20,000 nucleotides of DNA. It comes from an uncultured virus (IMG/VR IMGVR_UViG_3300023179_000076) (lineage: Duplodnaviria; Heunggongvirae; Uroviricota; Caudoviricetes). The translations under genes and the position numbers were made by a program. Where the stretch lies: positions 57,281-77,280 of the IMG/VR virus record IMGVR_UViG_3300023179_000076, one strand, 5' to 3'. Below, in pieces: positions 1 through 17,342 of the stretch (position 1 is its first letter; each line of letters begins with the position of its first letter). The notes under the pieces were generated by a model. It was not told the DNA's origin. It was given only the letters and a program-made list of their open reading frames with translations, and searched no databases.

Positions 1-3000
1 CATAGGCTGCTTCTTTTTTATCTTTAAATCCAGGAACAGGAATCTGTGGAGATTTTTTAGGATCTGTAAAATACTTATTATTAATTGGTAATCCTAATCC
101 TTTAAGAAATTGAGGAGTATCAAGATCAGTACCTTTATAAGTTCCTTTATATAATTCTACAAAAAATGCTCTATAAGCATAATTTTTTAACCATTCTGGA
201 TTAGTTAATCTTTGATCAGGAACTGTTTTTGATAAATCTTTAGATAATTTAGTTTCATTATCATTAAGTTCTCTAATTATAGAGCGAACATCTTCTAGTT
301 TAGCTGGTTTAGCAGATTTGATCCCGATTGCTTTTTTACCAATATCATAAACTGCTCGTGCAATACCAACTTTTTTAGCATTTGTAAAAGCATCTCCTGT
401 TTCTAGTTTTATTTTAGGTTTGGTTTTAGCAGTATCTACAGCTTCATTCTTAAATACTTCTGCTGCTCTATCTTTTAGATTTTCTTTAAACTTTAGAGCA
501 TCGACCTCCATATCTGTTACTACAGACGGAACAATATACGGAACAAAATCTTGTAATACCGACTTATATTGATTGCCTAACTCAGATTCAACACTATCAA
601 AACCACCCATAGGATCAGCAAACATGTATTTGAAAGTTTTTTCGGCTCCTATTAATTTTCCAGTTTTATTATCATATTGATTAGTATTATTTTTTAATTG
701 ATTATTAAAATTTTGCCATTGATTTTCTGGAATAAATAACTTATCTTGTGACATTTCTCCAAAAGGAGATCTATTATTATCTTGTTTATCTATAACATAA
801 TAATTAATTGGTTCTCCAACAAATTGTCTTTTTGATGTATCGTATCTTGTGCCTCTTGTGATTTTTCTGTAAAAAAACCAAGGCGCTAAATCTTTTTCTT
901 TTCCGTATTCTATAGGTGGACTTAAAGTATCAAATAGTTTTTGAGGCTTGGGTCCGAATTGTGATTTACCAGATGATACAAAATTTTCATGAGTGATATC
1001 AGTAACATTAAAGTCTTTAGATAGCCACGGATACGAATCAATTCTATTTCCTGTTTTTAGATCTATCAAATCAATAAAATTATCTGTATCAGCTTTAAAA
1101 TCATCATTTATAGGCAACAAATCTGCCAAATTATTTCCATTATTCTTTGATTTTTCTAATTTAGTTTTGAATTTATCTATTTGATTTTGCCATTGATTTG
1201 CTCCAATATTATATAAAGTTAAAGGTAATAGTTTGCCCTTAGCTTTTTGTCCATCTAAAATATTTTCATCTTCATCCCCTAATTCTATAGAGAATAATTT
1301 TTTATTTGCAAAATCTTCTAGTAAACTTATAATTGTTTTTTTATTTTGAAATTTTGAAGATGCTACAAATTTTTCTTTATCCATATTTTCAATGACTCGT
1401 TCTAAATTAGCATAGTTTTGTTTTGTAATGGATAAGTCCGCAAAAGCCTGCGAATAGTCAGATAGTAAACCGCCTGAGCCTCCTGCCGATTTATAATCTG
1501 TAAGATTCTCAATTTTTACCCCACCTCCGGTATTTGAGAATACTCCTTGAGGCATTCGACTAAGATTAATTGGATATGCCGCTGACTCCGAAATTTTATC
1601 TTTGCTTAAAAGATATTTTTTAGTTGAATCACTAACAGCTAAATTGTCTATAGACGCTTCGGAATTCGGATACCCAAAAAAAGCTCGTGGTATTTTTATA
1701 TCAAGGACACTGTCTTTAATTCTTGGAATAAATTTATCTTGAGTGGTAATATCCTTATCCAATATATTTTTATCAATTAAATTTAATATATTTTTATAAA
1801 TAGGTTTATTTTTTTCTAATTGCTGTTTTGTTATCGGTTTTTCATCACTAGACAAAAATTTGGATGTATCTAATAACGATTTGATTATTCTTTCAGCTCC
1901 TAAACCATTATACATATAGGAGTTTTTATCATTAACATCTATACTATTACCAACATAAGAAGATCCGGGAACTATGTTAAAATTACTATTTGGTACTGGT
2001 TTTTTAATTATTTTTTGTGTAAACCAATTTCTCTCTGCTGGAAACTCAATATCTTGTGTATATTTTTTATATGCTCTGGCGGGAGTTAATAGAAGTTCTT
2101 TTTGGTCGTCTGCTTTTGGTTCTTTTTTAACTTCTGGATAAGATTTTGATGTTTGTAGCTCGGTTTTGTCTCGTTCTGATGATTGATATAATTTTTGTTT
2201 ATCTGGTGTTGTCCAATTCTCTCCAGGTACAATACCACCATCTTGTAGATAATTAATCTTTCCTCCTCGACTACTATTAATACTTTGTAATAATGGTAAA
2301 TTACGTCTAGTCGAAGCTCTATTAACAACAAATTCTCCAGGAGTTAACATAGCCGGTACGGTGTCCGTACCTTTTGGAGCAAAGTCTATGGATGCTCCAT
2401 TACTGGCATAAACGATACCTCCGGTAGCAAATCCTGATGCTTTTTGATTATTTGCTACTAAATTTTTTAAATTAATAATTTCTAATCTAATATCATTCAA
2501 TATTTTCTCTTCAAATGTAAATTTAGTTTCTTGAAGTGCAACTTTTAATTTTTCAGCAGCATTTTTTGCTGTATTTTCTGACATTAATTCTTTGATTTCG
2601 CCTAATCTAGCATTTGCGCTAGCTTGTAGGCTAACTCCTTGCTTATAAACACTAATAGCTTCTTGCATCTCCGGATCACCTTCCGGATTTCGTAAACTAT
2701 CCAAAACTTGTGCAAACATTGGGGTAACGCCCTGTCCACTTTCAAGCAACATACTTTCTAGTACATTAGCTCTTAATTCATTTTGTTTAGCTCCTTCTCC
2801 CAATAAGGGGGCTATCATATTAAAAGATTGTAAACTCTCTGATCTTTGTTCAGCGGTTGTTCCGCGATTTACAATACCTCTCATATTATTATCTAATCTG
2901 TTCAAAGAACTATTGAATTTATTAAGCTCTTCGGAATTTGATGTTACAATTTTTTCTATTAAATTAGCGCCTGACTGCCTTTTTGCTTGAATTTCTTGTA

Positions 3001-6000
3001 TTTTAGCTAATGCAGCACTAGCTATCTCACTACTTTCGGCTAGATTTTTAAGCGCATCAAAATTTTGTCGTAATGCTAAATTATTATTACGAAGTCTATC
3101 TTGCATAGTCTTAAATTCATCCTCTGCTGACGGTCCTTTTGCTGCGGCAGAATCCGAGGCTTGTTGTAATGTTTGTCTAGAATTTTCTAAATTTTGAATA
3201 TTTCTAGATATTCTAACAGGATCTGTTTCTCCTCCTGTTTGTCTTCGTGCTTTATCTAATGTTTGTGTCAAGGTTTCTCTTAAACTAATTTCTCTTCCAA
3301 ACACTTTAGATAATTCATTATTTGATGAAGTAATAATATCTGATGCTTTATTAAAAGCCTGATTTGCTTCTAACTGAAGATCTATCATAGTATTCATAGC
3401 ATTAGCATATTCATTTACTGCATTCTGATAGAATTCCATAGCCCTAACAGCACTTTCCTGTGCTCGTTTAGCAGCTTCTATTTGTTTTGTTAAGCCTGGA
3501 ACTTTTTCTGCTATTTCATCAAAATTAACTTGGTCTAAATCTCCTTTAGTGCTAATATCTTTGAGAGCGCTCTGAATTTGTTTACTAAAAGATGGAACTA
3601 AACTATCAGGAATTTGTAGATCTCTTAATTGTTTATCTAAATTAGATCTAATTCTAGCTAACACTTTTTCATTAGTTGCATTTGGATCTTCTTTACGTGT
3701 TCTATTAATTGTTTGTAAGATAGTATCTTCTAGTTGACCAGCACCAATATTAAGAATTGATGATATTGGTTGGCTCGCTGATCCAAAAAATGAACCAGCA
3801 AAATTTACAGCCTTATCTTGTTCTTCTTGGGAGTATACACCTCTGTTTTGTAGTACATTAATGGCTTTTAAGTTAACCTGTCCAGCTTTAGCATTGCCAT
3901 TTAAAGAAGCAGTAGCTAATTCAGCGCTATTAGATAGTTGTTGAATTTTGAAAGATGCCTTATTTATTGACATCTCCATATTAGAATATATTCTTTCCAT
4001 ACTATTAACAAACGTATTAACGCCCTTATTTAATTTTTCAAATTCTATTTCTCTAGCAACTCTAGCGTTATTTAATATGATTTGTTTTTCCGCTTCTCTT
4101 GCTATTATTCCATCTATTATTTTTTTTCTCTGGTCATCATCTAAATCTGCTCTAGCTTGGGTTTCTATAATTTGTTGTGCTACGATAGGATTTGATCTTG
4201 CGATAGTGTCAGCAAATTGTGAAACATTACCATTAGCGTCTTTTATAGAGGCTAATATTTCATCTTCTGATTTTTGACCACTTCTCATTTGCTGTTCAAA
4301 AACTCTAAATATATTATCTGCTAATGGCTTAAACATTGCTGATTGCTGTTGTGCCAATCCAGGGGCTAAAGCAAACATATTTGATTGTCTATTTAGAGCT
4401 GCTTGTTCATTAGCTGACCTATTGCTGAATATTTTAGTATCATACATGCTTGATCCACTCAATGCTTTAAAAATAGCATCTGGTATTCCAAGAGCAAGAG
4501 CATTAGCAGTCATTCCTATTGGAGCATTACCAAGTGTAGTAGATTGCAAATATGCTCCAACTCCTTGTTGTTGTAAAATCATGCTTCTTTGTGTTGCTTC
4601 TGATCCAGAAAAAGCCATTGCATCTATAATATTTGTCCAAAACATAGCCGGTACTTCCGTATCAATCTTTAGTCTTGCCATAGCAGCAGATATTCCAACA
4701 TTTATTTGATCTGTTATATCTTTTAGAATACTTAACTTAGTCATATCTTTACTAAATTCATCAAATAGTATAGATATTCTATCCAAGCTTGTTTGTAGTT
4801 TTTTACTAGCTAATTCTTTATCAAATTCTCGTGCCGCATTATAAGCATCTTTAAATGCTGCTGCTAAACTTATAGCGGCGGTTGCTGCTATTCCAAATGG
4901 TCCAGTTAATACTTTTGTTAGTCCAGGCAAAACTGATCCTGCTAATTTTCCTATTCCTGTACCACTAAATATAGTAGAAGTAGATAATTCTTTTAATGTT
5001 TGAAGACTTTGGCCAATACCAACCGCTAATGTTGAGGCTGTGGATGTTCCACTAGAAATTGCTGCTGCTGCCATTGCTGCGTTTCTGCTTTCTGTTGCAT
5101 CTATAAATTTAGCTATAACACTACCAGCAGCTCCTATAGCTAAACCAAATTTACTAAATTTTGCAGATATTTTATCGATTTCCTTAAATAGTTGTTGAGT
5201 TTCTCCTCTGGATTTTAATGCTTCTCCTGTGGCTCCTTTAATTTGTTCTGGTTGTATCTTATTTTGAGCAGCAATCATTGTCGCTGCTCTGGATACAATT
5301 GCTTCATCGGTTGATATATTCTTTATAGCATCAGTTAAACTTTGAACATTAAAAGCTTGTGTTGGAGTAGCCCCCTGTTTTAACTGATCCATAATATCTT
5401 TTAGTATTTTATTACTATCACCAGCAAAATTTTCTCCTAGAATATTTTCAAGAGTATCTCCTATACTTTCTTCTAGTTGTGAAATATCTATAGCTTTTCT
5501 CTCTTGTCCTTCTTGATTAGCATATTCTCCTTTTGCTTCTCTAGCGCTTATATTTTCAAGACTTTGTTTAGCATCAAATAATTGTTCTTGAAAACTATCT
5601 AAAGCTCTAGGAAGATTATTCTTAAATTGTTCAGCTAAATTTAAAGCCTGATCAGATAATGACTGAGAATATTCCTCAAGACTTTGTCCGGCTAGTCTTG
5701 CTCTCAAAGCCAAATAATCGTTCGCTGTGGCAGCAGCCTGGGCCTTATTTTTTGTTTCGGAAATTTGTGATATTATATCTTTTATATTGGTGCCTTGTCC
5801 TAGATCAGTCACATCAAATGCTTGTAGTCCTCTAGATCTAATAGTCTCGCTAAGTGCTTGTTGTCTTGCTTCTTGTGTGGACGGCACCTCTGGTCCTAGT
5901 ACATTGCTAAAATCTTGCTCCATAATATTGATTGATCTAGTATCAATTTCTTGTTGTAACCCAGATATATATTCTTCTGTGGATTGATTAGCTTCTTTAG

Positions 6001-9000
6001 CTCTTTGAGCTAATAGTTCTTGTAGTATTATTTGTTGTTGAGCAGCTTTATTGGCCTGTATGGTAGCATCAACAGCTTGAAATTTTAGCCTAGCTTCATC
6101 TTGTATCGCTTGCTTATCTTCTCTGGACGATGCTGCTCTGTATAATGGGTCATATTCTGATTTGATTCTTTCTTTTGACTCTATTCTTTGAGCAATTGCT
6201 TCGTTTTCTACTGCTGCTAGTTTTTGCTCGGCAGATTTGGGTACGGGAGGTGGGGTTGGTGATAAAGAAGATCTGTTTCTGCGACGAGGGCGTGGTGGAG
6301 TAACTGTATATGTTGTTGTTGATTTTGGAGGCTCTATAGGAGCAGGATTTTGATATGTATCTATTGCTTTATTTAGAGCATCAATATAATGAGTCATTAT
6401 AGCATCAACTTCTGCCGTTGTTTTTCCTTGTTTAGCCAAAGACACGACTACTGCGCGGTAGCTTTGCACCATCAAACTAGCATCGTCTAATGTTGCATCG
6501 ATAGTACTATGATATCTATCTAAAGTCTTTGCTAAAATCGGAGCCACTTTGTCTATCTCTTGCCAGGCTGAATAGCTATTACTTATCATTTGTTCTGTAG
6601 TTCTAAAGCTATCTACTAATAATATTGCACTTGTCTTTAGAAATCCAAGATCAGGCATGAGCGTCCGAATACCAGTTGTGTCTTTTCTTCCATAAGAAAC
6701 CTTATCACCGTCTTTAAATCTTCTTATTCCAACAATACCACCACTATTTAAACCTAGTGCTTTGGTAGCTTTTTCTCTTATTATAAAACTTCCTACTGGT
6801 AAATTTGTTGGTATACTATCACTAGTACCACTTCCCGGGCCTTTAAATATGCTAATCCCACCAGAGTTGAAACGACCCATACCATTTTTATCAGCTTGAT
6901 TCATTCGGCCTAGTGTTCCGTATCCAATACGTTTAGCAAGCTTAGGAGGCACGTAAGCCTCTCCATTACTTACCAATGCTGGAACAGTACCGCCACTAGC
7001 GAATCTTGGTAATGTTTGATAAAAGTCTGATTTTAATCCAGTATCCGCAAATATTTGTTCTAAAATTTTAGCAGCTGATGTGCTCCCCTCGGATGCTGCG
7101 CCAAGCAGAACCGGTATAGCTTCGTTTCTTCCAACATCAAAACTACCTCTACCCAAAGCCCTTAAAGAATTTCTGCTTGGATCAACTTTAGCTTTTTGTA
7201 AAGTTGTAAAACCAGATACCGCCATATTTTTCCCGATGTTTCTCTGTTCGCCAAGGGTTCTGTCTGTCAAATTTGGTAAAATATCGGTTAATTGATAATT
7301 TCCTGGACCGGTCCATTTTTTATTGTCAGGATTTTCATACCATTCTTGAATTGAATCTTTTTGTTTTTCTATAGAAGCAAATAATTTACCCATAATTTCT
7401 GGATAGTAATCATATAGATATCCTTGAATATCATGAAATGTTTCGTGTGCTAAGACGCCTTTATGTTTAGCACCTCCGACTTCTATTGTATCCGGAGTAT
7501 CATAAGTTTCGAATATTATATTTTGATCAATAAAATCTTTAAGTATAGAATATTCCTGCTTAGATATAAGCGGCTTGGCTTGCTCTATCTGATATCGCAT
7601 GGCCTTGAAAGGTAATGCTCCGGAGTAATAAGCCTGTTGTCCGACTGTGGAAATATTTATCTTTTCGCCTTGCCCTGTGGGGGTTTTCAATAAGCCATCT
7701 TCGGTCAACATTTCTTTTGGTAAAATACTTGATAAAACTTTTTTATATTGAGCTAGTAATTCTTCAGGAGATGGTTTGGATTTTTTCTTTCCAAAAAGTA
7801 ATTCTTTAATATCTGTTACTGGTCCACCTGTAGCAAATTTTTGTCTACTTATTCCAGCACCTCCCAATAAGTCATTTAGAGTACTATCCAAAATTCCACT
7901 TAAATTTTCATCTAATAATGGTAATTTTTGTATTAATGTTGTTAAAAATTCTTCTTTACCATTATCTTCATATTTATCTATAACATCTTGGCTTATTTTA
8001 CCTCTTAATAAAATATCATTAACTTTAGGATTCAGTGGTTTAAAAGCTTTGGCGGTTGTTGTAGAATTAGTTGCTGCCCAAGTTTTTCTTAATTCTGGAA
8101 TATATTCTGGATCACTATTAACATATTTTGCAAATGACTCTTTGGCTGATCCTATCATCAAGCTGCTTAGTCCACTAAGTTTATAACTTCTTCCATAAGC
8201 AACATCAGCACTATTATATCCGCTATTTCCTACTAGAGCATCAAAAGCATCTGCCACATCATCATTATTTCCATCAAATAAACTAGCAACTTTTGCTCTG
8301 TATGCTTCAAATGATTGAGCATTTTTAGTTCTAAGACTATTAAAAAGTTGATGAGTTAATTCATGATATAAAATACTATAGTCTTGACGTTGACTTGTAT
8401 TGAACGGATTAGTAGCTATACCAACGCTACCACGACCACTCTGATTTGCGGATTGTAATCTAGATTCTTTTGCAGCTTTAATAGCCGCATTGTTTTTATC
8501 AATAAGAGATCTTTGTTGTTTTTGTAAATCGTCTAATTCTGCTCTTAGTTTTTCTGCTAGAGCCGTATCATAGCTAAAACTACCATCTTCATATGTTGTA
8601 ACAGGAGTTTTAATTGTTTTTAATATTTGTTTCTTTTTTTCTTCTATTAGTTTAGTATATCCGAATAAATCTTGTTTATCTTGTTCAGTATAACCATATG
8701 GTGTCAGATCCACTCCTTGTAGTCCCCTGGTTCCTGGGCCAGAAGGATCCTTGCTAAATAATGCTGTAGCAGGATAATTAACACCAAAGTCTAATTGAGT
8801 TGGTATTGCAGATAAAAGATCGGTGGGTGGCAATCCTATAACTCGCGCAAATTGCCCCATTCTTTCAAAAACTGTATTTCTATTTATTTTATCCTTAAAC
8901 GAATTTATGAATAGTTCTCTAGTAAAAGGAGATTCATATCCTTTTTTCACAGCCTCCTCGTCCACAACCATTCTTTCATTACCAGGATACGTTGAAAAAA

Positions 9001-12000
9001 CCTTTTCCATTTGTTCTTGTTCTAATAATTTTTCCATTTCCCGAACATAAGCATTACTTATTCTTTTGGGGAATTTAAATGCTCCAGAACCAAATGTTGC
9101 TGTTCCTCCTTTAGCAAAGGCTTGTGGATTTTCTTTAAAGTATCTACTAAATTCTTCTCTGGCTTTTGAAAAACTGTCTCCGTCCAAAGTTCTTTTTACT
9201 TCTGTTTCGATATTAGGAGGTAATCCAAAAAGTTGAGCACCTCTGCCTAGTCCCTGTGGAAAATCAATCGCCCTATTTCTTTGTAAAGCATCAACATTTA
9301 TATTATAGCCCAATAATTGTGACAATGCCGCTTCTAACAAGCCTCCTTCAATATTAGATTGTCCAAATTTTTCTTCTGCTGATCCTTTGAGTTCTGGAAC
9401 TTCGCCATAACGAAAAGTACTTTTACCAGCAGCCATTGTTGCTCTAATATTTTCTTCATTATCATCGATTAATTTTTCAGCTCTTGCAACATCAGCGGCT
9501 TTAGCTTTTGCTATATTTGTTCCTAGTCCTTGACTAACTCCAGTAACATCTTGTTCTAAATATGGTAATCCAAATCTATTAAGAGTTGATGCTATGATAT
9601 CTGCCGTACTTTGAGGACGGGCCGTTAAGATACGACTATACATCCTAACATATCCGGGATTTTTTTGTTCTATACTAGCCAATCTTTTAGCTAGAGAGGT
9701 TGGTCTAGCTTGGGCTAGACTCTTCGTAACTTTTTCTCTATCCGAATAGGCCGGTAAATCTTCTTTACCATTTTCATCTAGCATTTTTGTTCCAAGAGCT
9801 AGTGTTTCATCAAAATCTATTGCTAATGGTTGAATTGGCCCCTGAATATTTCTATTACCTAATCCGCCTAATGCTGCCGTATCTTGAATATCTTCAGCAA
9901 ATTTTTGACGAGTAGCTCTATTAGCCTCTTGCATAGCTTCTATTTGCGGTAAAAAGCTAGATTGAAATCCTCTAACATAACCATAAATTTCTCTACCATC
10001 TTCCAACTTCCAGTCTGAAAAATCTTTATTATAATCTAATGGAAATAATCCGGCAATTGCAACTTTTCTCATAGCTGCTTCTTTTGCTTCTTTAGCAGCA
10101 TTTTGCTTTCCTGTCTTAGCCAACGCCCTATTTATATATCTAATAGCTTTTTCTATATTTTTACCAGCTTTAATATTACCAGCATTTAATATGGCGCCAG
10201 CCTCTCTATCTCCTGATCCTAATCCTAATATTTTTTTAACTCCACTAGCATCTCCAAAGCTAGACAATTGTTCTAAAATTACAGTTTCAATAGATTTTTT
10301 TTCTTCAGCAGCTATGCCCTGTACTGTTCCGCCAACCGCAAACCTTCGTCTTGCTGCTTTTTGATCACCATAAACTATGCGTTTACCAACCGGACCACGC
10401 GAAGCTTGTGTTGCTAATTTTCCTCTTTTTATAAACTCTCTAATAGTTTCTTCGTCTTTTAGTTCATCAAATCTCATAGTCTCAGTACCACCAATAGCAC
10501 CATACCTGGCTATTGGAAATCCATTTAAAACACCAACAGAAGACGATTTTTCTGAAAATAGCTTTTTAAATAATGGCAACTGTGATCTAGATGATTCTAA
10601 ATTAGCAATAATTTTATCAGCACGAGCCTCATCAATTATCATAGAATTAGAAATTGATTTTGATATAAGTTGTTCATCGCTTCCATAAAATTCACCCAAA
10701 AGAGTTCTTATGGTCGATAATTTAGATTGTAGTGCTTCTCCTCCACCAGCAAATTTTTGAATTAGTCCACCAGAATTTAAATTTCTAGCCCTAACTATAT
10801 CGGCCATAGGTATATTTAGATTATTAGCATTTTTTATTATTTCTTGATTAAATTTATCCTGATAATATTTATCAAAATTAGATTTTGTTTGATTTGGATT
10901 TTCAGGATAATAAATACTAGTATTTTTTAGTGGACCTTTACCTTTGTAATTAGATGTAAATAAATCTAAGCCATCCGTCCATGGTAACATATCTTGATCA
11001 TGTACAAGTCTTTTAACCAAAATAGTCTTATCGTCATTCTGTTTATTTCTGCTAAAATATTTAAAAACTCCTTTCTCAAATTTAGCATCTCCACTTTCAA
11101 AATCCAGTGGTGCAAAATGTTCTTCTACTATCTCTGGAAAAGTAGAATTGCTGTCAATAGAATATCCTGATAATAAACCATACTTTTTAATTAATAGTCT
11201 TTGAAACGCATTGCCTTTTGCCCAATTCGCTGGCGGTCTTGGAAGCGGCAAATCTAGCGTTTCCAAGTCTAGATTTTTTTTAGCAAATAAACTTTTTGGG
11301 GTGTCGTTATTAAGTATTTCATTATTTGCAGACATTCTTTTATATTGTTTAATATTAGATATATAGTCTTGTTTAATAAAACTTACTAAGTCATTAAAGT
11401 CATTTTGATTTAAAGTAATCGGTTCTGGTATTATTGTTGTCTCTACTTCGTCGGACTCTTGTATTCCTCCTATACCAAGTTTAATTCTTGTCCCGCCACT
11501 TACAGCCGTCAGATTATCAATAGAATCAATAACTTTAGACCCTTTAGCATATCTATTCATCCTTACCAAATTACCTCTTCCATACTTATTAACAGCTCTA
11601 TTGCTCATTACAACTTCGCCAGGCTCTAATAATGCTGGAACTTTGTCTCCTTTTCCGCTGCCAGGAACAGTTCCTCCTTTAGAGAAACCTAAAATACGAC
11701 CACCTCCACTAGCGGTAGTTGGTCCGCCGCCTCCTCCCAAATCTTTTCTATCTAAAGTAGCATCTAAATTAACCAAAGCGGCGTACACACTATTTAGCAT
11801 ACTATTATTATCTGATAATATATTGGTATTATCTTGTAGTTTTGAACTATTGAGAGTTAAACTATTATTAAGTATATTAAAATCGATACGAAGATTATTG
11901 ATACTTGTCCTTAGATCGTTAAATACTGTTGGGTCAATAGACACGCCTGCGGCACTAGTAGGGCTGCCAGCAGGAGCACCAGCAATATTCAGAGCAGATA

Positions 12001-13723
12001 AACTAGAAATTAAAAGATCTAATTTTCCAGCAACTTTGTCTAACGACGCACTATTTTGATCCAAATCTCTACTAACTTGTTCTGTTTTAGCGCCAACAAG
12101 ACTACTTCCAATATTTCTTCCAATAGAACCAACCACGCTTTGTGGTTGTTGTGCTCCTGGTCCTCCTTTAGGAACTTTTTTCAAACCACCAATAAATCCG
12201 CTAGTAAATTGACTTAATCCTCTAAAACTAGCCCCAGCTGCTAAAATAGCAAGTGAAGGTAAAACACCTTTAACAGCATCTGTAATCTTAATAAGACCAC
12301 TAGCAAATGTTAATGCTCCTCTAGCTAAAGTTTGAAAAGTATCACTTTGTCCCAAACTACGAATTAATGTTAAAAATTCTTCTCTCACTTTAGCTATTTG
12401 ATTGGCTAAACTTAATTGTGCTTTAGCAGCATCTGCTGCCAAACTACCCTGACCAGCCTGAGCCACTCTCAAAGCATCTTGTGCGGTAGCAAACTGTTGA
12501 ATCAATGGAATAACTTTGCCAATTTGACGAAAACCACCAAGCTCTTCAACTATTTGGCTAAATCTTATGTCTCTAGGATCTATACTACTTAATCCTTCGC
12601 TAAGTAACTGTACAGCCTTGTATGCACCAACAAATTTACCTTCGGCATCAGTCAGTGTAACACCAAATTCTTTGAGTGCTTCTATAGTACCTTGTCTTTG
12701 AATACGTGTAAAAATAGTTCTCAAACCTGTAGCGATTGTTTCGGCGCTTTCACGCGTTGTGGCACGAACACTAGTAAACACGGCTATAAATTCATTAAGA
12801 GCGTCTGCTCCTTCGCTAACTCCTTTACTCGCGGTTGCAAACACACCACCGGTTCGTTGTATAGCCGCAATAATATCGCTAGACTCAACAGCAAAAGCTG
12901 CTGCAACACTATTAACACTACCTAATGCTTTTTCTAAATCTTTTGCTGCTATGCCAAACTGTCTCATTAGAGCAATAGATCCTTCGACTGTTTGATTAAT
13001 ATCATCAAAACTAGGCGCTAATTCTGTTAATGCTAATGCTTTTAAGGCCTGTTCAGTTTCTCTAGCGCTTAATCCTGCCTGAGCTAATGTTGATGATACT
13101 TGAATTAAACTATCAGAACTAACACCAAGACCAGTTGATAGTCTTGTAATTTCATCTTGGAGTCCTTTTAATCCATCGGCGCTTTGACCAGTAACTTGCT
13201 GTAATCGCACTAATTCTTTATCAAATTCTATAAAGTTTTTCAATCCGCTATTAATTGCTCTATTAAGACTAAAAAATACTCCTGTTACAGCACTAAATGC
13301 AGCAAAACGACGAATGGCTAATGCGCTTTGACGACCAAATTCTTCCATCTCTGTTCGTGCTACAGAAATATTTTTTGCTGTTTTTGTTACTGTTGTTCCT
13401 AAATTACCAGAACTACTTATTGTTTTATTTATATTAGAAGATAATTTATTAGAAGAATTACTAATAGAATTTATACTTTGACCAAAATTTTTAATAGCAG
13501 ATGCTGCCGCAGTAGCGTTGGACGAAACAGAAGATAGGTCGGAACTTAGTTGTTGTAATGATTTACTAAGTTTTGTTGTATTATTAATTGCTGATGGATC
13601 AATATTAAATTTTATATCACCAGTAATTGTACCAAGTTGTTTTTTAACATCCGAAACTATTTGCCTAACATTTGATGGTCCACGCAAATTTAATTGTGCG
13701 GTTAAATTAAAGGCTTGTGCCAT
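1..13723 (-). CDS. Giant tape measure protein with embedded enzymatic modules (3'-truncated by window edge, >4574 aa)
   Basis: ATG at 13723 with AGGA upstream; reads MAQAFNLTAQLNLRGPSNVRQIVSDVKKQLG. Manual translation found no in-frame stop down to base 2 (...PGFKDKKEAAY), which explains its absence from the ORF track. N-terminal part has typical TMP core sequence (EFDKELVRLQQVTG, LAQAGLSARETEQAL, FAVESSDI, RESAETIATGLRTIFTRI, LKEFGVTLTDAEGKF, LGGFRQ). It lies downstream of tail tube and chaperone-like genes. Confidence 0.93.
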   Translation of the reverse strand, partial: MAQAFNLTAQLNLRGPSNVRQIVSDVKKQLGTITGDIKFNIDPSAINNTTKLSKSLQQLSSDLSSVSSNATAAASAIKNFGQSINSISNSSNKLSSNINKTISSSGNLGTTVTKTAKNISVARTEMEEFGRQSALAIRRFAAFSAVTGVFFSLNRAINSGLKNFIEFDKELVRLQQVTGQSADGLKGLQDEITRLSTGLGVSSDSLIQVSSTLAQAGLSARETEQALKALALTELAPSFDDINQTVEGSIALMRQFGIAAKDLEKALGSVNSVAAAFAVESSDIIAAIQRTGGVFATASKGVSEGADALNEFIAVFTSVRATTRESAETIATGLRTIFTRIQRQGTIEALKEFGVTLTDAEGKFVGAYKAVQLLSEGLSSIDPRDIRFSQIVEELGGFRQIGKVIPLIQQFATAQDALRVAQAGQGSLAADAAKAQLSLANQIAKVREEFLTLIRSLGQSDTFQTLARGALTFASGLIKITDAVKGVLPSLAILAAGASFRGLSQFTSGFIGGLKKVPKGGPGAQQPQSVVGSIGRNIGSSLVGAKTEQVSRDLDQNSASLDKVAGKLDLLISSLSALNIAGAPAGSPTSAAGVSIDPTVFNDLRTSINNLRIDFNILNNSLTLNSSKLQDNTNILSDNNSMLNSVYAALVNLDATLDRKDLGGGGGPTTASGGGRILGFSKGGTVPGSGKGDKVPALLEPGEVVMSNRAVNKYGRGNLVRMNRYAKGSKVIDSIDNLTAVSGGTRIKLGIGGIQESDEVETTIIPEPITLNQNDFNDLVSFIKQDYISNIKQYKRMSANNEILNNDTPKSLFAKKNLDLETLDLPLPRPPANWAKGNAFQRLLIKKYGLLSGYSIDSNSTFPEIVEEHFAPLDFESGDAKFEKGVFKYFSRNKQNDDKTILVKRLVHDQDMLPWTDGLDLFTSNYKGKGPLKNTSIYYPENPNQTKSNFDKYYQDKFNQEIIKNANNLNIPMADIVRARNLNSGGLIQKFAGGGEALQSKLSTIRTLLGEFYGSDEQLISKSISNSMIIDEARADKIIANLESSRSQLPLFKKLFSEKSSSVGVLNGFPIARYGAIGGTETMRFDELKDEETIREFIKRGKLATQASRGPVGKRIVYGDQKAARRRFAVGGTVQGIAAEEKKSIETVILEQLSSFGDASGVKKILGLGSGDREAGAILNAGNIKAGKNIEKAIRYINRALAKTGKQNAAKEAKEAAMRKVAIAGLFPLDYNKDFSDWKLEDGREIYGYVRGFQSSFLPQIEAMQEANRATRQKFAEDIQDTAALGGLGNRNIQGPIQPLAIDFDETLALGTKMLDENGKEDLPAYSDREKVTKSLAQARPTSLAKRLASIEQKNPGYVRMYSRILTARPQSTADIIASTLNRFGLPYLEQDVTGVSQGLGTNIAKAKAADVARAEKLIDDNEENIRATMAAGKSTFRYGEVPELKGSAEEKFGQSNIEGGLLEAALSQLLGYNINVDALQRNRAIDFPQGLGRGAQLFGLPPNIETEVKRTLDGDSFSKAREEFSRYFKENPQAFAKGGTATFGSGAFKFPKRISNAYVREMEKLLEQEQMEKVFSTYPGNERMVVDEEAVKKGYESPFTRELFINSFKDKINRNTVFERMGQFARVIGLPPTDLLSAIPTQLDFGVNYPATALFSKDPSGPGTRGLQGVDLTPYGYTEQDKQDLFGYTKLIEEKKKQILKTIKTPVTTYEDGSFSYDTALAEKLRAELDDLQKQQRSLIDKNNAAIKAAKESRLQSANQSGRGSVGIATNPFNTSQRQDYSILYHELTHQLFNSLRTKNAQSFEAYRAKVASLFDGNNDDVADAFDALVGNSGYNSADVAYGRSYKLSGLSSLMIGSAKESFAKYVNSDPEYIPELRKTWAATNSTTTAKAFKPLNPKVNDILLRGKISQDVIDKYEDNGKEEFLTTLIQKLPLLDENLSGILDSTLNDLLGGAGISRQKFATGGPVTDIKELLFGKKKSKPSPEELLAQYKKVLSSILPKEMLTEDGLLKTPTGQGEKINISTVGQQAYYSGALPFKAMRYQIEQAKPLISKQEYSILKDFIDQNIIFETYDTPDTIEVGGAKHKGVLAHETFHDIQGYLYDYYPEIMGKLFASIEKQKDSIQEWYENPDNKKWTGPGNYQLTDILPNLTDRTLGEQRNIGKNMAVSGFTTLQKAKVDPSRNSLRALGRGSFDVGRNEAIPVLLGAASEGSTSAAKILEQIFADTGLKSDFYQTLPRFASGGTVPALVSNGEAYVPPKLAKRIGYGTLGRMNQADKNGMGRFNSGGISIFKGPGSGTSDSIPTNLPVGSFIIREKATKALGLNSGGIVGIRRFKDGDKVSYGRKDTTGIRTLMPDLGFLKTSAILLVDSFRTTEQMISNSYSAWQEIDKVAPILAKTLDRYHSTIDATLDDASLMVQSYRAVVVSLAKQGKTTAEVDAIMTHYIDALNKAIDTYQNPAPIEPPKSTTTYTVTPPRPRRRNRSSLSPTPPPVPKSAEQKLAAVENEAIAQRIESKERIKSEYDPLYRAASSREDKQAIQDEARLKFQAVDATIQANKAAQQQIILQELLAQRAKEANQSTEEYISGLQQEIDTRSINIMEQDFSNVLGPEVPSTQEARQQALSETIRSRGLQAFDVTDLGQGTNIKDIISQISETKNKAQAAATANDYLALRARLAGQSLEEYSQSLSDQALNLAEQFKNNLPRALDSFQEQLFDAKQSLENISAREAKGEYANQEGQERKAIDISQLEESIGDTLENILGENFAGDSNKILKDIMDQLKQGATPTQAFNVQSLTDAIKNISTDEAIVSRAATMIAAQNKIQPEQIKGATGEALKSRGETQQLFKEIDKISAKFSKFGLAIGAAGSVIAKFIDATESRNAAMAAAAISSGTSTASTLAVGIGQSLQTLKELSTSTIFSGTGIGKLAGSVLPGLTKVLTGPFGIAATAAISLAAAFKDAYNAAREFDKELASKKLQTSLDRISILFDEFSKDMTKLSILKDITDQINVGISAAMARLKIDTEVPAMFWTNIIDAMAFSGSEATQRSMILQQQGVGAYLQSTTLGNAPIGMTANALALGIPDAIFKALSGSSMYDTKIFSNRSANEQAALNRQSNMFALAPGLAQQQSAMFKPLADNIFRVFEQQMRSGQKSEDEILASIKDANGNVSQFADTIARSNPIVAQQIIETQARADLDDDQRKKIIDGIIAREAEKQIILNNARVAREIEFEKLNKGVNTFVNSMERIYSNMEMSINKASFKIQQLSNSAELATASLNGNAKAGQVNLKAINVLQNRGVYSQEEQDKAVNFAGSFFGSASQPISSILNIGAGQLEDTILQTINRTRKEDPNATNEKVLARIRSNLDKQLRDLQIPDSLVPSFSKQIQSALKDISTKGDLDQVNFDEIAEKVPGLTKQIEAAKRAQESAVRAMEFYQNAVNEYANAMNTMIDLQLEANQAFNKASDIITSSNNELSKVFGREISLRETLTQTLDKARRQTGGETDPVRISRNIQNLENSRQTLQQASDSAAAKGPSAEDEFKTMQDRLRNNNLALRQNFDALKNLAESSEIASAALAKIQEIQAKRQSGANLIEKIVTSNSEELNKFNSSLNRLDNNMRGIVNRGTTAEQRSESLQSFNMIAPLLGEGAKQNELRANVLESMLLESGQGVTPMFAQVLDSLRNPEGDPEMQEAISVYKQGVSLQASANARLGEIKELMSENTAKNAAEKLKVALQETKFTFEEKILNDIRLEIINLKNLVANNQKASGFATGGIVYASNGASIDFAPKGTDTVPAMLTPGEFVVNRASTRRNLPLLQSINSSRGGKINYLQDGGIVPGENWTTPDKQKLYQSSERDKTELQTSKSYPEVKKEPKADDQKELLLTPARAYKKYTQDIEFPAERNWFTQKIIKKPVPNSNFNIVPGSSYVGNSIDVNDKNSYMYNGLGAERIIKSLLDTSKFLSSDEKPITKQQLEKNKPIYKNILNLIDKNILDKDITTQDKFIPRIKDSVLDIKIPRAFFGYPNSEASIDNLAVSDSTKKYLLSKDKISESAAYPINLSRMPQGVFSNTGGGVKIENLTDYKSAGGSGGLLSDYSQAFADLSITKQNYANLERVIENMDKEKFVASSKFQNKKTIISLLEDFANKKLFSIELGDEDENILDGQKAKGKLLPLTLYNIGANQWQNQIDKFKTKLEKSKNNGNNLADLLPINDDFKADTDNFIDLIDLKTGNRIDSYPWLSKDFNVTDITHENFVSSGKSQFGPKPQKLFDTLSPPIEYGKEKDLAPWFFYRKITRGTRYDTSKRQFVGEPINYYVIDKQDNNRSPFGEMSQDKLFIPENQWQNFNNQLKNNTNQYDNKTGKLIGAEKTFKYMFADPMGGFDSVESELGNQYKSVLQDFVPYIVPSVVTDMEVDALKFKENLKDRAAEVFKNEAVDTAKTKPKIKLETGDAFTNAKKVGIARAVYDIGKKAIGIKSAKPAKLEDVRSIIRELNDNETKLSKDLSKTVPDQRLTNPEWLKNYAYRAFFVELYKGTYKGTDLDTPQFLKGLGLPINNKYFTDPKKSPQIPVPGFKDKKEAAY
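4810..4829. repeat. 20-bp exact direct repeat, copy 1 (ctaattctttatcaaattct)
   Basis: Identical to 13210-13229; both copies encode EFDKEL in the TMP frame. Confidence 0.9.
7004..7822 (-). other. TMP module E: zincin-like metallopeptidase domain 2
   Basis: VLAHETFHDIQ (HETFH 7433-7447), with downstream RNEAIPV (E 7121-7123). Bounded by FATGG and FASGG. Confidence 0.7.
7838..9103 (-). other. TMP module D: zincin-like metallopeptidase domain 1
   Basis: ILYHELTHQL (HELTH 8351-8365) after a beta-strand (GSVGIA), with downstream EEF (7946-7954) as candidate third ligand. Bounded by FAKGG and FATGG. Confidence 0.7.
9119..9360 (-). other. TMP module C2: putative PD-(D/E)xK nuclease domain
   Basis: EGGLLEAAL (E at 9332-9334), AIDFP (D at 9263-9265), ETEVKRT (EVK at 9194-9202). 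Confidence 0.6.
9420..9830 (-). other. TMP module C1: HAD-superfamily phosphatase domain
   Basis: Motif I LAIDFDETL (9800-9826), motif II ILTARP (9614-9631), candidate motif III Lys in AKAKAA, motif IV LIDDNEENI (9446-9472), in canonical order. Confidence 0.8.
10781..11536 (-). other. TMP module A: putative PD-(D/E)xK restriction-endonuclease-fold domain
   Basis: KGNAFQRLL...PLDFESGDAKF resembles GxxFE...D...(D/E)xK, with Q in place of E. Bounded by YAKGS and LNSGG motifs. Confidence 0.4.
12150..13330 (-). other. TMP core domain (PhageMin_Tail/TP901-family-like) within giant ORF
   Basis: Ala/Gln/Leu-rich helical sequence with the TMP core motifs, followed by hydrophobic segment GVLPSLAILAAGASFRGLSQFTSGFIGGL. 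Boundaries approximate. Confidence 0.85.
13210..13229. repeat. 20-bp exact direct repeat, copy 2
   Basis: Identical to 4810-4829, 8400 bp away. Confidence 0.9.
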
Positions 13724-13745
13724 AAATCAAATTCCTAGATTAAGA

Positions 13746-13787: not shown

Positions 13788-13800
13788 ATATAACCCAATA

Positions 13801-13811: not shown

Positions 13812-13817
13812 AATTTA

Positions 13818-14726
13818 TCAAGTTGTTGACACTGTTTGTTCAGTTGATGCAGAAACTGGTTGGGCTTCTTGAACAACCGGGCTTTCTGTTGGAACTGATG
13901 GTTCAACCTTATCATCTTTGGGTTTTTCCTCATCTAATATTATTGGATTTCCATTTTCATCAAGGAATGGTTGACTATCAACCAAATATTCTCCATCTTT
14001 ATCTACTTTGTTACCAAACTTATCAACAAAATTACCTTCTTCATCAATAAATCGACCACTCTCATCGATCAGTCTACCTTCTCTATCTATTAATCTGCCT
14101 TTCTTATCTACTAGTCGTAATTTTTCATCAATAAATTTAAATTTCTTTAAGAACTTATTTTCTGGTAAATTACTTTCATAATCGTTATCAAGACCATACA
14201 GCATATTAGCTAAATTTTGAGCGCCCATTATAGCAACCTTTTCTGTGCTGCTATTTAGATACTCTTCCATATTTTTGTAAACAGGCTGTTTAGTATCATT
14301 ATACACCAAACAAACACTAACTAAATAATTAAATCTACTATTATCAGCTTGACCTTCTGCGCTATGATTATCTAAACTTGTTCTTACGCTAATAAGATCT
14401 CTTATTTCATCTCGTATGCTTTTCATCTTGATAGCAAGATCTTTGGCTTCATTTAAACTAAAGCCACCTTTTGCTAATCTTTTTTCTCCATCTAGCAGAT
14501 CTTTTTGTAGTTCAGTAAACTTAGCTTGTTTCTCATCATTCCACAAGCCCTGATCTTCTAATAAATCATCTAGCTTTGCTCGTACAACACTTTTACTTTT
14601 AATAGCATCTGTAAAAGCTTGATTATAAACTTTTTGAGCTTCTCTTTGATTTTCTAAGGTTGGGCTTCGTACTAAAAATTCTTTTTCGACACCATCAACT
14701 TCGAGCTTAAAAGTTTTTGTTTTCAT
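13818..14726 (-). CDS. Putative tail assembly chaperone with DxxG heptad repeats (302 aa)
   Basis: GAGGAG RBS (14735-14740), ATGA overlap with upstream gene, position immediately upstream of TMP, helical N-terminal domain. Function inferred from synteny. Confidence 0.6.
   Translation of the reverse strand: MKTKTFKLEVDGVEKEFLVRSPTLENQREAQKVYNQAFTDAIKSKSVVRAKLDDLLEDQGLWNDEKQAKFTELQKDLLDGEKRLAKGGFSLNEAKDLAIKMKSIRDEIRDLISVRTSLDNHSAEGQADNSRFNYLVSVCLVYNDTKQPVYKNMEEYLNSSTEKVAIMGAQNLANMLYGLDNDYESNLPENKFLKKFKFIDEKLRLVDKKGRLIDREGRLIDESGRFIDEEGNFVDKFGNKVDKDGEYLVDSQPFLDENGNPIILDEEKPKDDKVEPSVPTESPVVQEAQPVSASTEQTVSTT
13939..14114 (-). repeat. Protein-level 7-aa tandem repeat h-h-D-x-x-G-x
   Basis: LVDKKGR LIDREGR LIDESGR FIDEEGN FVDKFGN KVDKDGE, then YLVDSQP FLDENGN. 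Confidence 0.9.
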
Positions 14727-15010
14727 TTGTTATTCTCCTCTTTGAAATTAAGTTTATAAGTATATTTTGAACTAATAGTATTCTTTGATAAATATTTTTT
14801 AATGTCATCAATAGCAGCACGAGCTTGCTTATTTCCATTATTTAGTATACTGTTCCTAGTATATTCCCAAGTATCCCAAATTGGACTATCGTCAGGTTCT
14901 TTATCCCATAAATGTCCAAAATGATCTTCAAATCTTGCCAATGCTCCTATCATAGTTGTTTGAAATCTTTTGTATAGATTATCTAATAATTCTTGTTCAC
15001 TATTATTCAT
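14723..15010 (-). CDS. Hypothetical protein in tail module (95 aa)
   Basis: Tightly packed in operon (3-bp gap upstream, ATGA overlap downstream); protein-like sequence FQTTMIGALARFEDHFGHLW. Confidence 0.8.
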   Translation of the reverse strand: MNNSEQELLDNLYKRFQTTMIGALARFEDHFGHLWDKEPDDSPIWDTWEYTRNSILNNGNKQARAAIDDIKKYLSKNTISSKYTYKLNFKEENNK

Positions 15011-15013
15011 ATA

Positions 15014-16039
15014 TTATTTCCTGTTTTTAATTTGTTGGTTAAGTTGATTTCTTAGATCTAACTGTACATCTGGTAGTTGACTTTCTTCTGTTTGTCCAAA
15101 TTTTTGCACATGGCTTATTTTGCTTTTCATTCTATTCAACGACTCCGGACTGTTTAATGATATAATTTCCTCTGCTTGATTAACATTATTAGCCATTATA
15201 AAAACTTCCTGAGCATTTTTAAGTTTTGGATTCATATTATCTATTTGTTGTTGTTTTTTATCTTTTTCTATTTTACGTTTTTGTATTATCATCCATCCAT
15301 CGAGAGCATCGTCATCTTCTAGAATATCATCATCAGGACATTCAGGGTGCTCATATACCCTATCGTACATTTGGCTAATACCTATCAGTGTTCTCTGGTC
15401 ATCTGTTAAGTTTCCATCGAACACATTATTCTTTTTAACATTCCAATATGATCGCCATAGTTGGCTGCGAGCCAATTTTTTAAAATCAGTTATGGATATA
15501 CTGTATTTATTAAGTTCACTAACAATATTATTAAATAACATATAATTAGATGCATTTTTACTAGAAACAAATACTTTATCTTTGTTCTGAATTAATGTGT
15601 GAGAAATAATATATTCATTTTTTATACTATTAGCATATCCCTCTAATGTATTAGAATATAGTTCTTCTTTTTTAGATAGTATAGAATTTAATTGTTTTTT
15701 ATAATTATCAAGATTTTTTTTGATACTATTTTTTTTATCAGAAAGTTTAAAATTTGAATAGTAGTCAGCTTTGCTATTTTCTATTTTTTTATCTAAATCC
15801 TTAATAATCATTTTGGTGTCTTTTGTCCATAAACTTAAAAGTATTAATAAATTTTCTAAATTTTCTTCTCTTATCCAGTCATTATATTTTTCATCATTAA
15901 TGATATTATTATATAATAATTGCGCTTCGTATTTAATAGGTATGGTTGGTGATTTTAAAACATATTTTTCATTATTATAGTAAAAAATTAAACTTCCATA
16001 AAAAATTCTATATAATAATAATTCCAGATCATCATTCAT
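15014..16039 (-). CDS. Putative tail assembly chaperone (341 aa)
   Basis: Lies between tail tube and TMP; N-terminal half paralogous to 13818-14726; acidic C-terminal motif MYDRVYEHPECPDDDILEDDDALDGW. Function inferred from synteny. Confidence 0.6.
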   Translation of the reverse strand: MNDDLELLLYRIFYGSLIFYYNNEKYVLKSPTIPIKYEAQLLYNNIINDEKYNDWIREENLENLLILLSLWTKDTKMIIKDLDKKIENSKADYYSNFKLSDKKNSIKKNLDNYKKQLNSILSKKEELYSNTLEGYANSIKNEYIISHTLIQNKDKVFVSSKNASNYMLFNNIVSELNKYSISITDFKKLARSQLWRSYWNVKKNNVFDGNLTDDQRTLIGISQMYDRVYEHPECPDDDILEDDDALDGWMIIQKRKIEKDKKQQQIDNMNPKLKNAQEVFIMANNVNQAEEIISLNSPESLNRMKSKISHVQKFGQTEESQLPDVQLDLRNQLNQQIKNRK

Positions 16040-16220: not shown

Positions 16221-17342
16221 TCAGTCACCAACAACAGCGTCGTTAGCGTTATCGATCCATTTAACTTCTTGGAAAGTGCCACTAGCTGTAACCTTAAACT
16301 TATTGAAAGTTTGATAGCTATATGTGATGGTAACATTATCACCACCAGCTTCGCCACCAGTATAGTTAACACTAGTGAGTTTATTCTTAGTACCAAGATC
16401 TATTTCTAAATAGTCATTTACTCCGCTGCCACACACAACAATCTTCACAGGCTTATCTTGAAGATTTTTGTATACAACATCGCAACCAACCTGACCATCA
16501 AAGTCTTGACCTTCTACTTGATCGCCGTTATCTCCAATAACCTCGAATTCGCTAGTTACTTCAACTGGGAATGTAACATAACGATAGTATGGGGCCATAG
16601 CGCCAAGTTCATTAATAGCTTCACGACCAAGATCGGTACTAACAGTAACACTCTGTAGATATGGCATAGTGCGATTTTCTGGAATTGGAATACCTCCACC
16701 AGCTCCAGTTGGAATAACGCTTTGACTGCTATTGAATTTATAACGTCTACCAATAGAGGGAGCTGTCATTGTGCCAGCATCGGCTTGGGTGCTGAAAAAT
16801 CCAGCGTTAGCTGCTCCAACATTTGTGCTATTCCAGTATTTATTATTTCCAACAAGTGTAACGTCTTCTGTTGCATTACCATCAACAGGAATAGTGAAAC
16901 TTACGCTGCTAAGATACATGCCAGAACAATCTACCCATGTTGGAACAGTACCAGTTGCGGCACTATTAGTATCTGAATAGATACCAAGTCTAAAATTTAC
17001 TCTATTGTTTGCTAAATTAACTAATTCTTGACCATTGGCCCCAGGAATACCAGTCGAACCACCCATACACATTAGGTATAATGGTGCTGTTCCGTCGATA
17101 ACCTTATTAATTGTTACTTCAACTTCTGGTACGTCTTCAACGTTTTCATATAGTTCGATTTGACCAAGTTGGAAAACTTGTTCCAAAGCAAAATTTGTTG
17201 TTATACCAGCGCTTTGAACACCACGAGGATAGTACCATCCATCGGCGCCACCTGAAAAATATGTTGGAGGTGTTGTGGTATCACTTTGTGGCTTTAGAGC
17301 TATAGCTTGAGTTGCATAAAAAATTCTGTTGTTTCGTGCCAT
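16221..17342 (-). CDS. Major tail tube protein (373 aa)
   Basis: GGAG RBS (17351-17354); beta-rich Gly/Thr/Val composition; tube-like motifs GVQSAGITTNF...FQLGQ and LQSVTVSTDLGREAINELG; located between terminator-like gene and chaperones/TMP. Confidence 0.75.
   Translation of the reverse strand: MARNNRIFYATQAIALKPQSDTTTPPTYFSGGADGWYYPRGVQSAGITTNFALEQVFQLGQIELYENVEDVPEVEVTINKVIDGTAPLYLMCMGGSTGIPGANGQELVNLANNRVNFRLGIYSDTNSAATGTVPTWVDCSGMYLSSVSFTIPVDGNATEDVTLVGNNKYWNSTNVGAANAGFFSTQADAGTMTAPSIGRRYKFNSSQSVIPTGAGGGIPIPENRTMPYLQSVTVSTDLGREAINELGAMAPYYRYVTFPVEVTSEFEVIGDNGDQVEGQDFDGQVGCDVVYKNLQDKPVKIVVCGSGVNDYLEIDLGTKNKLTSVNYTGGEAGGDNVTITYSYQTFNKFKVTASGTFQEVKWIDNANDAVVGD

Follow-up and report, generated by a model that had tools for sequence, protein, structure and literature searches.

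The stretch of DNA analysed here (the window) comprises 20,000 nucleotides (nt) of an uncultured Caudoviricetes virus, IMG/VR record IMGVR_UViG_3300023179_000076, and corresponds to bases 57281-77280, the final 20 kb of a linear 77,280-bp virus record estimated to be 53% complete; the genome of this phage is probably larger than 140 kb. We looked specifically at a gene on the minus strand (window 2..13723) that encodes the first 4,574 amino acids (aa) of a giant tape measure protein (TMP) and was delineated through the listing of open reading frames (ORFs) and extension into the rest of the contig. The first-pass annotation had described one frame open from the ATG at 13723 to the window edge and had read it as a giant TMP, and both statements held. 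The frame runs stop-free in the ORF listing and translation from ATG 13723 to window base 2, where its 3' end is open. Re-translation, named by the annotation as a check, revealed no in-frame stop, and the extension that it had proposed reached the stop at contig base 53847, 3,435 nt past window base 1. The complete ORF has 5,718 aa instead of the visible 4,574 and occupies 17,157 nt including the stop (contig 53847..71003, minus strand), and the 77,280-bp contig contains zero N. The start is credible because AGGA stands about 10 nt 5' of the ATG and because the N-terminus, MAxxFNLTAxLNLRGP, was found again in most related genes.

The assignment as a TMP is borne out by family matches at the N-terminus. 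PF10145, the one Pfam family to pass E<=0.01 within the window's 4,574 aa, was matched at aa 189-384 (79.2 bits, cut-off 33.2), TIGR01760 (tape_meas_TP901) was matched at aa 161-497 (84.8 bits, cut-off 28.8), and five TMP families of PHROGs matched aa 17-997. The N-terminal TMP core defined by PF10145 and TIGR01760 (aa 1-520; window 12164..13723, minus strand) was common to 114-117 of 119 giant relatives. As these matches are accompanied by a tube-like gene upstream and tail genes downstream, both described below, the gene can be regarded as the tape measure gene of a large tailed phage, and its product, judged from the sequence, is a TP901-type TMP of an uncultured freshwater phage with a long tail. 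The earlier remark that most TMPs are well under 2000 aa is fair, although a cargo-bearing TMP of 5,002 aa, gp96 of phage P23-45, has been studied (PMC10770324). At 5,718 aa, the present protein is longer than any studied TMP.

The protein is punctuated by a short recurrent peptide, hereafter the joint, with the core pattern [FY]xxGG. This pattern occurs 12 times (aa 680, 991, 1128, 1536, 1963, 2241, 2285, 3765, 4625, 4839, 4846 and 5550), against 2.2±1.5 occurrences and a maximum of 8 in 2,000 shuffles, and the median of 14 copies among 148 family proteins is 6.2 times the expectation from composition. Six joints carry the extension G(T/S)D(T/S)xPAxLxxGExV. Joint 1 (aa 680-745; window 11489..11686, minus strand) consists of FSKGG followed by VPALLEPGEVV..., a form like that of lambda gpH. 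The tandem joints (aa 2241-2345; 6689..7003, minus strand) read FASGG...VPALVSNGEAYV and FNSGG...GTSDSIPTNLPVGSFI, and joint 4 (aa 3765-3845; 2189..2431, minus strand) reads FATGG...GTDTVPAMLTPGEFVVN. In the joint core GTDTVPAMLTPGEFVVN, 13 of 17 positions were identical in all 28 diverse C-termini compared and two more in at least 90% of them. The copies inside the gene share only 52-61% identity as DNA, with exact runs of 8-14 nt, so it is the peptide that is conserved and not a recently duplicated piece of DNA. A strict joint pattern was found in 1-8 copies in all 120 giant proteins tested, this one included, with a median spacing of 1,039 aa, and the last copy lay at a median of 194 aa from the C-terminus (interquartile range 183-213). 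Here the final extended joint starts at aa 5497, about 220 aa from the end, and its core motif lies at aa 5520, about 200 aa from the end. At least 644 stretches in IMG/VR match two back-translated joint patterns, and the joint occurs once or twice in the TMPs of cultured phages of Burkholderia, Shewanella, Ralstonia, Paracoccus, Gordonia, Rhizobium, Pseudanabaena and Nodularia.

The joints divide the protein into a series of blocks, all encoded on the minus strand. Block M0 (aa 1-679) holds the N-terminal core. It is followed by the variable blocks M1-M2 (aa 746-1127; window 10343..11488), which are separated by a short joint at aa 991 and are shared, from aa 801 onwards, by only 6-26 of 119 relatives per 100-aa bin. 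The cassette M3 (aa 1133-1535; 9119..10327) carries four HAD-type motifs and then a D...(D/E)xK motif. M4 (aa 1541-1962; 7838..9103) contains an invariant YHE(L/M)THQ, with HExxH at aa 1787, and ends in FATGG; M5 (aa 1968-2240; 7004..7822) contains a second HExxH at aa 2093 and is shared by few relatives. In the backbone block M6 (aa 2346-3764; 2432..6688), a proline-rich linker and a variable helical stretch are found together with a hydrophobic segment and the family-wide central block. The variable block M7 (aa 3846-4574 in the window; 2..2188) is rich in aromatic residues and proline and had no family match. The window does not reach joints 5 and 6, block M8 or the C-terminal 150 aa.

Conservation among relatives separates these blocks into two classes. 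In a BLAST comparison with the 119 giant relatives, the widely shared parts were aa 1-500 (114-117 relatives), 2900-3850 (79-114 relatives), 4600-4850 and 5500-5700, and the rarely shared parts were aa 800-1300, 1600-2200, 2400-2900, 3900-4600 and 4900-5450. The smallest family members retain the N-terminal core, the central block and a C-terminal piece. The central conserved block (aa 2919-3832; window 2228..4969, minus strand) is of near-fixed length in 127 family members, its span being 0.988-1.094 of the model with a coefficient of variation of 2.7%, against 19% for the total lengths of the same proteins (3,512-7,872 aa). The split is backed by composition, as aromatic residues and proline are less frequent in aa 1-800 and 2500-3800 than in the rest of the protein; a single hydrophobic segment is present, at aa 2938-2956. 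By this sequence comparison, about one third of the protein is a family-wide backbone, and the remaining two thirds look like cargo. The two helical stretches proposed by the first-pass annotation (13723-11690, aa 1-678; 6700-2440, aa 2342-3762) coincide with M0 and M6, whose limits were set here from the joint positions and the low content of aromatic residues and proline. Its estimate that over half of the TMP may be cargo agrees with these proportions, but its step from "not helical" to "not ruler" is unsupported.

Through comparison of close relatives, we could see that blocks differ in their history. The region aa 1126-1978 is 92-96% identical in these relatives, in whose contigs the N-terminal core is 58-85% and the central block 25-69% identical; their TMPs measure 4,648, 4,706, 4,746, 5,586 and >5,725 aa. 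In other family members the sub-blocks appear in a different order. Alignments of 150 aa or more yielded 1,032 internal endpoints, and 505 of these fell inside joint windows that cover 16.9% of the protein; counted as unique 10-aa bins they were 57 of 203 (p=4.7e-5); the remaining endpoints clustered at the ends of the N-terminal core and of the central block. These alignments indicate that related phages have exchanged whole blocks at the joints.

The cargo contains recognisable enzyme-like motifs. In M3 the four HAD motifs follow in order, D1303-F-D1305-x-T1307, T/S1367-A-R-P, K1408 and D1420-D1421, and D1303, D1305, T1307, K1408, D1420 and D1421 are present in all 20 aligned members, position 1367 being T in 18 and S in two. 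Six of the 20 M3 members matched phrog_415 (polynucleotide kinase), phrog_2643 (deoxyribonucleotidase) or phrog_8630 (nucleotidase) at E<=0.1, the best at 2e-5. Based on these motifs, M3 is a probable HAD phosphatase resembling Dmp of phage T5. No stand-alone homologue of the HAD region was found among proteins of 204-650 aa, apart from a single partial fragment of 339 aa. After the HAD motifs come D1487 and K1510, found unchanged in 21 of 21 members, with E or D at position 1508; no model matched this segment, and from its arrangement, D1487...(D/E)1508-x-K1510, it is at most a candidate PD-(D/E)xK nuclease. The YHE(L/M)THQ of M4, with the HExxH motif of a candidate zincin-type metallopeptidase, was invariant in 11 of 11 members. 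A profile of M4 retrieved 42 proteins among 1.84 billion representatives, 33 of them of 2,709-7,279 aa, within which the position of the block varied. Neither of the HExxH blocks M4 and M5 matched a peptidase family, M7 and M8 gave no match, and Pfam recognised no cell-wall hydrolase in the cargo. An RNA polymerase was considered as cargo and rejected, as the sole match to D.D.D was DLDDD at aa 3193 in a helical stretch and BLASTP found nothing in common with the TMP of phage P74-26.

The protein belongs to a family of giant uncultured relatives. A search limited to proteins of 3,144-10,007 aa scored 1,090 proteins, 313 of them at E<=1e-3; the 120 listed of these 313 span 3,515-7,872 aa, nearly all carry PF10145 and their contigs reach 241 kb. 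Among these 120, the window's own protein included, 79 exceed 5,006 aa, 47 exceed 5,718 aa and 12 reach 7,000 aa. One identical database entry of 5,718 aa (P0003) is the window's own protein and adds no independent support. A further 34 complete family genes of 2,201-6,543 aa were found in IMG/VR loci. Among the cultured phages searched, none exceeded about 27% identity to the N-terminal core and none had the central block, the joint peptide alone being matched. The search for a host in prokaryote genomes returned three contigs of metagenome-assembled genomes (MAGs) and zero integrated copies. One of these contigs (L082, 5,341 bp), in an Alphaproteobacteria MAG, is 100% identical to the N-terminal core and the two others are at 59%; they are probably binned phage DNA, and an alphaproteobacterial host is at most weakly hinted at. 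The literature searched contained no description of such a TMP family, although papers beyond the reach of this search could exist. The stretch also recurs in lake and freshwater metagenomes, where 20 rows from 15 studies contain part of it and five rows contain at least half of the sampled words.

The neighbouring genes agree with a tape measure gene. A tail-tube-like protein of 373 aa is encoded 2.5 kb upstream of the TMP gene (window 16221..17342, minus strand), and its look-alikes in the ESM Atlas fall in the Phage_tube_2 cluster with a score of 0.97, in a look-alike search that is not an alignment. The protein had no match in Pfam, PHROGs or the PDB and no similarity to the tube protein of P74-26. 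Three ORFs of 341, 95 and 302 aa without family match lie between the tube and TMP genes (13818..16039, minus strand), which is the usual location of tail assembly chaperones. The 302-aa ORF directly upstream of the TMP gene (13818-14726, minus strand), at the chaperone position, contains short repeats in a row (GRLIDREGRLIDESGRFIDEEGNFVDKFGNKVDKDG) and an acidic tail rich in proline and matched no family in Pfam, PHROGs or NCBIfam. Between it and the TMP start, an inverted repeat ATTCCCCG ... CGGGGAAT with a 17-nt loop is followed by a T-rich run (13735-13785, minus strand); this hairpin was considered as a terminator and was not called by the terminator scan. Downstream on the same strand are ORFs of 1,188, 858, 180, 300, 403, 386, 444, 668, 2,242 and 2,704 aa, with domain matches to FGE-sulfatase, fn3 and BNR/glycosylhydrolase, so that the TMP gene is placed between the tube-like gene and large distal tail genes. 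The 1,188-aa ORF right after the TMP gene (L002:10282-13845, minus strand) has an FGE-sulfatase-like domain (E 1.2e-9), the 444-aa ORF (L002:2503-3834, minus strand) bears BNR/sortilin repeats together with a match to an F510_1955-type glycosylhydrolase (E 4e-17), and the products of contig 25644-40483 (L003:3647-18483, minus strand) may be tail fibres.

The opposite arm of the contig encodes PhoH, a UvsX-like recombinase, DnaB, a primase, a deoxynucleoside monophosphate kinase and a split family-B DNA polymerase. The polymerase (contig 11080-16568, plus strand) is divided over three ORFs of 432, 294 and 537 aa, each matching phrog_405; between them lie a 283-aa ORF matching endonuclease and HNH endonuclease families and a 233-aa ORF resembling an exonuclease subunit, and the gene looks as if it were interrupted by mobile endonuclease genes or inteins. 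Amid the replication genes, a 662-aa ORF (L004:9095-11080, plus strand) matches large-terminase families in its centre (phrog_19299, E 3.4e-28) and exonuclease families at its N-terminus, an odd location for a terminase. A scan of four loci (contig 1-20000 and 22001-72000) detected no tRNA genes.

Taken as a whole, these features are explained with reasonable, if not strong, likelihood by a modular TMP in which exchangeable, enzyme-like cargo bounded by joints is set into a fixed backbone, with the whole chain lying inside the tail's tube and the cargo being delivered to the host. The backbone would consist of the TP901-type N-terminal core, the fixed-length central helical block with its hydrophobic segment and the C-terminal end piece, and the variable blocks would be inserted between these parts, each ending in a [FY]xxGG joint. 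The whole chain would occupy the tail tube and set its length. As the TMP would leave the tail before the DNA, the enzyme blocks could reach the host ready-made, and they may first be cut apart at the joints. A bolder form of this proposal, for which we would give only a small chance, has the protein acting as a ruler of about 1 µm or more, longer still in relatives of up to 7,872 aa and there beyond the longest known tail, and then being injected ahead of the DNA as a kit cut at the joints. In that same speculative form the kit of free enzymes would hold a phosphatase like Dmp, a piece resembling a nuclease and two blocks resembling metalloproteases, and would be traded between lake phages.

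Whether the cargo counts in tail length is what separates this explanation from one in which only the conserved 1,900-2,000 aa or so act as the ruler and set a tail of about 300 nm, the cargo being compact, looped or stored elsewhere. That the central block is so constant in length among proteins of such different totals speaks for a backbone-only ruler, as do the differences of more than 1,000 aa in the cargo of close relatives and the higher content of aromatic residues and proline in the cargo, which is expected of folded domains. However, the cargo sits between backbone segments of one chain and so must traverse the lumen of the tube, and by an estimate of lumen volume, which assumes a lumen of about 4 nm and roughly half-dense packing, three to six copies of a 5,718-aa chain would need a tube of at least about 0.3-0.6 µm. 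Characterised phages also argue against it. In TM4 an enzymatic motif of 114 aa counts in tail length, as its deletion reduced the tail from 200±10 to 180±6 nm (accessible part of PMC1796659). The TMP of P74-26 has 5,006 aa and its tail measures nearly 1 µm (accessible part of PMC10034513), and the Nodularia phage vB_NpeS-2AV2 has a TMP of 3,404 aa and a tail of 795 nm (PMC6293099, Table 1), or 0.23 nm per residue; the tails of both exceed even the whole TMP at 0.15 nm per residue. We used as a helical proxy the fraction of 50-aa windows in which F+W+Y+P make up no more than 8%, a crude measure with two giant calibrators only, which gave 0.47 for P74-26 and 0.68 for 2AV2. Counting helical residues alone predicts about 350 nm for each of them, far under the lengths measured, and the tail of about 300 nm that the first-pass annotation had derived from the helical stretches is not supported by these two phages or by the TM4 deletion. 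We consider a backbone-only ruler rather unlikely. For the present protein, 0.15 nm per residue would give 858 nm, and since the nm-per-residue ratios of the calibrators applied to 5,718 aa extend this range, a whole-length ruler with a tail of about 0.9-1.3 µm is somewhat favoured by analogy.

Two further readings concern the chain itself. The joints could be maturation cleavage sites of a polyprotein, at which the TMP is cut after tail assembly so that the backbone and the enzyme pieces come apart, perhaps through the action of its HExxH blocks, by analogy with the maturation of lambda gpH to gpH* and gpHC; this would refine the modular explanation and not replace it. Lambda gpH bears a joint at aa 735-775 and is cut in a glycine-rich region near residues 690-710 (accessible part of PMC12617516), the last joint keeps its fixed distance from the C-terminus in all 120 giant TMPs, and the HExxH block of M4 is nearly confined to giant proteins, with 33 of its 42 matches being 2,709-7,279 aa long. 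Cleavage at the family joints would extend the case of gpH, whose cut site is placed only approximately relative to the joint; the HExxH blocks lack a peptidase family, and the invariance of the joint would be explained equally if it bound a chaperone, the tube or the tail tip. On balance, a polyprotein is a tentative possibility. The other reading, that the 5,718-aa frame is a chimera, joined by a metagenome assembler that switched between co-occurring strains where they share blocks, is very improbable. It draws on the high identity of aa 1126-1978 in several contigs, on raised summed contig depth over the corresponding window positions (about 7940-10740) relative to most other parts of the gene in three of four runs (X3, X4 and X6), on alternative joined forms at window 10336-11554 in lake runs, and on the absence of a listed contig piece across the whole gene. 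The raised depth and the joined forms fit a block common to several co-occurring phage strains. Logan contigs of four other runs that were not flagged as possible sources cover 30 of 30 bins of window 1-14000, although no single listed piece spans the gene. In run X3, exact pieces that abut or overlap (1-2690, 2694-5117, 5113-6800 and 6774-7907) tile window 1-7907. Besides, the query and its relative L022 (5,586 aa) run collinearly through aa 1-1978, 2238-4850 and the C-terminus. The 79 of 120 listed proteins above 5,006 aa come from several sources, with contigs up to 241 kb, so that giant size and architecture do not depend on this one contig.

Several observations weigh against the modular explanation with delivered enzymes. 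The HAD segment of the query itself matched no family at E<=0.1, and Pfam, NCBIfam, the PDB profile search and the ESM Atlas returned nothing for the HAD cassette. In further searches, Pfam at E<=1 gave chance-level matches only for nine segments and all 25 members of alignment A3, NCBIfam left the cargo segments aa 1126-1978 and 1979-2333 without a match, and no usable match to aa 1330-1680 came from the ESM Atlas. Among PDB profiles alignment A3 found nothing, and alignment A2 found weak coiled-coil matches to the heptad repeats of coronavirus spike. Aligned with T5 Dmp by hhalign, motifs I and II stand in register over 85 columns at an E-value of 0.035 and a probability of 1.5%, and alignment A3 did not match E. 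coli GmhB. The total lengths of close relatives, from 4,648 to >5,725 aa with a fixed backbone, also fit a ruler made of the backbone alone. None of the listed contig pieces spans the whole gene, and an assembler could be misled by blocks that strains share. For the last 280 aa, the AlphaFold2 model built from 28 aligned sequences was poor (pLDDT 56.8, below 50 in the joint core) and unsuited to a fold search; from the low score of its core, the joint probably needs a partner to fold. The 373-aa tube-like protein and a 308-aa protein have no meaningful PDB relatives, which speaks neither for nor against a sheath. Finally, this phage is known here from its genes alone, and tail length, cutting and delivery are inferred.

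Enzyme-carrying TMPs have precedents in TM4, T5 and P23-45. The closest functional parallel is with the Thermus phages, whose tails, nearly 1 µm, are the longest known (accessible part of PMC10034513). P23-45 gp96 (5,002 aa) contains a virion RNA polymerase at residues 327-1124, and in the model for that phage the enzyme is delivered with the TMP (PMC10770324); gp96 and its P74-26 counterpart gp95 (5,006 aa) share with the present protein the giant size and the placing of an enzyme inside the ruler polypeptide. Yet BLASTP found no similarity between the TMPs, the cargo here has no DxDxD motif of the RNA polymerase type, and the cargo is N-terminal in the Thermus proteins whereas here the TMP core is N-terminal and the cargo internal. 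The P74-26 TMP is not enriched in joints, having two [FY]xxGG against 1.6 expected, a count reached by 497 of 1,000 shuffles, and the present TMP is 712 aa longer than gp95, with relatives reaching 7,872 aa. By comparison of sequences, this TMP would work like P23-45 gp96, as a ruler with enzyme cargo, and is not a member of the gp96 family. What is new here is the scale and the cassette organisation, as the enzyme-bearing ruler itself was already known from gp96.

The joint links the protein to lambda and to a cultured aquatic siphovirus. Lambda gpH (853 aa) carries FATGG at residues 735-739 and, from residue 747, PAGIVHRGEFVF... / PAGIVHRGEFVFTKEATSRIGVGNLYRLM, and a hidden Markov model of the joint unit matched gpH at E=0.005 in a search against this one sequence. 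The pattern [FY]xxGG is enriched in gpH (3 copies against 0.34 expected), and in both proteins a joint lies about 100-200 aa from the C-terminus. However, gpH has one extended joint and no cargo, whereas six extended joints and no fewer than seven variable blocks are present here. Neither the exact site at which gpH is matured nor the protease is identified in the accessible part of PMC12617516. The large TMP of Nodularia phage 2AV2 has an extended joint, SDTVPAMLTPGEFVVN, at aa 1011 and a second at aa 1080; the joint alone matches, the N-terminal core and central block do not, and its joints are internal, away from the C-terminus. TM4 gp17 also has an enzymatic segment inside the ruler that is dispensable for assembly, but the TM4 motifs are small peptidoglycan hydrolase pieces (accessible part of PMC1796659), while the cargo here amounts to thousands of residues fenced by joints. 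M3 resembles T5 Dmp in the arrangement of HAD motifs I and II, including a D..G..DL..Y insert after motif I, with the weak statistics given above. Dmp is annotated in the T5 record as a deoxynucleoside-5'-monophosphatase encoded by a pre-early gene, and the pre-early genes are linked to degradation of host DNA (accessible part of bioRxiv 10.64898/2026.04.02.716235). Dmp is a separate protein of 244 aa made from the first DNA that enters the cell, whereas the domain here lies within a virion protein; carried in the virion, a Dmp-like domain would act at the same stage as T5 Dmp, at the very start of infection.

Unlike in earlier enzyme-bearing TMPs, the cargo makes up most of this protein and is arranged in cassettes with a common joint that are swapped among co-occurring phages. 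Should the ruler be the whole chain, many freshwater phages would have tails that equal or exceed the record of nearly 1 µm, as 79 of the 120 listed TMPs are longer than that of P74-26. The family also constitutes a natural experiment on the effect of folded inserts on tail length, since the backbone is fixed and the cargo of close relatives differs by more than 1,000 aa. Besides, the joint, shared with lambda gpH and situated near the unmapped cut of that protein, provides a concrete peptide for studying how TMPs are processed.

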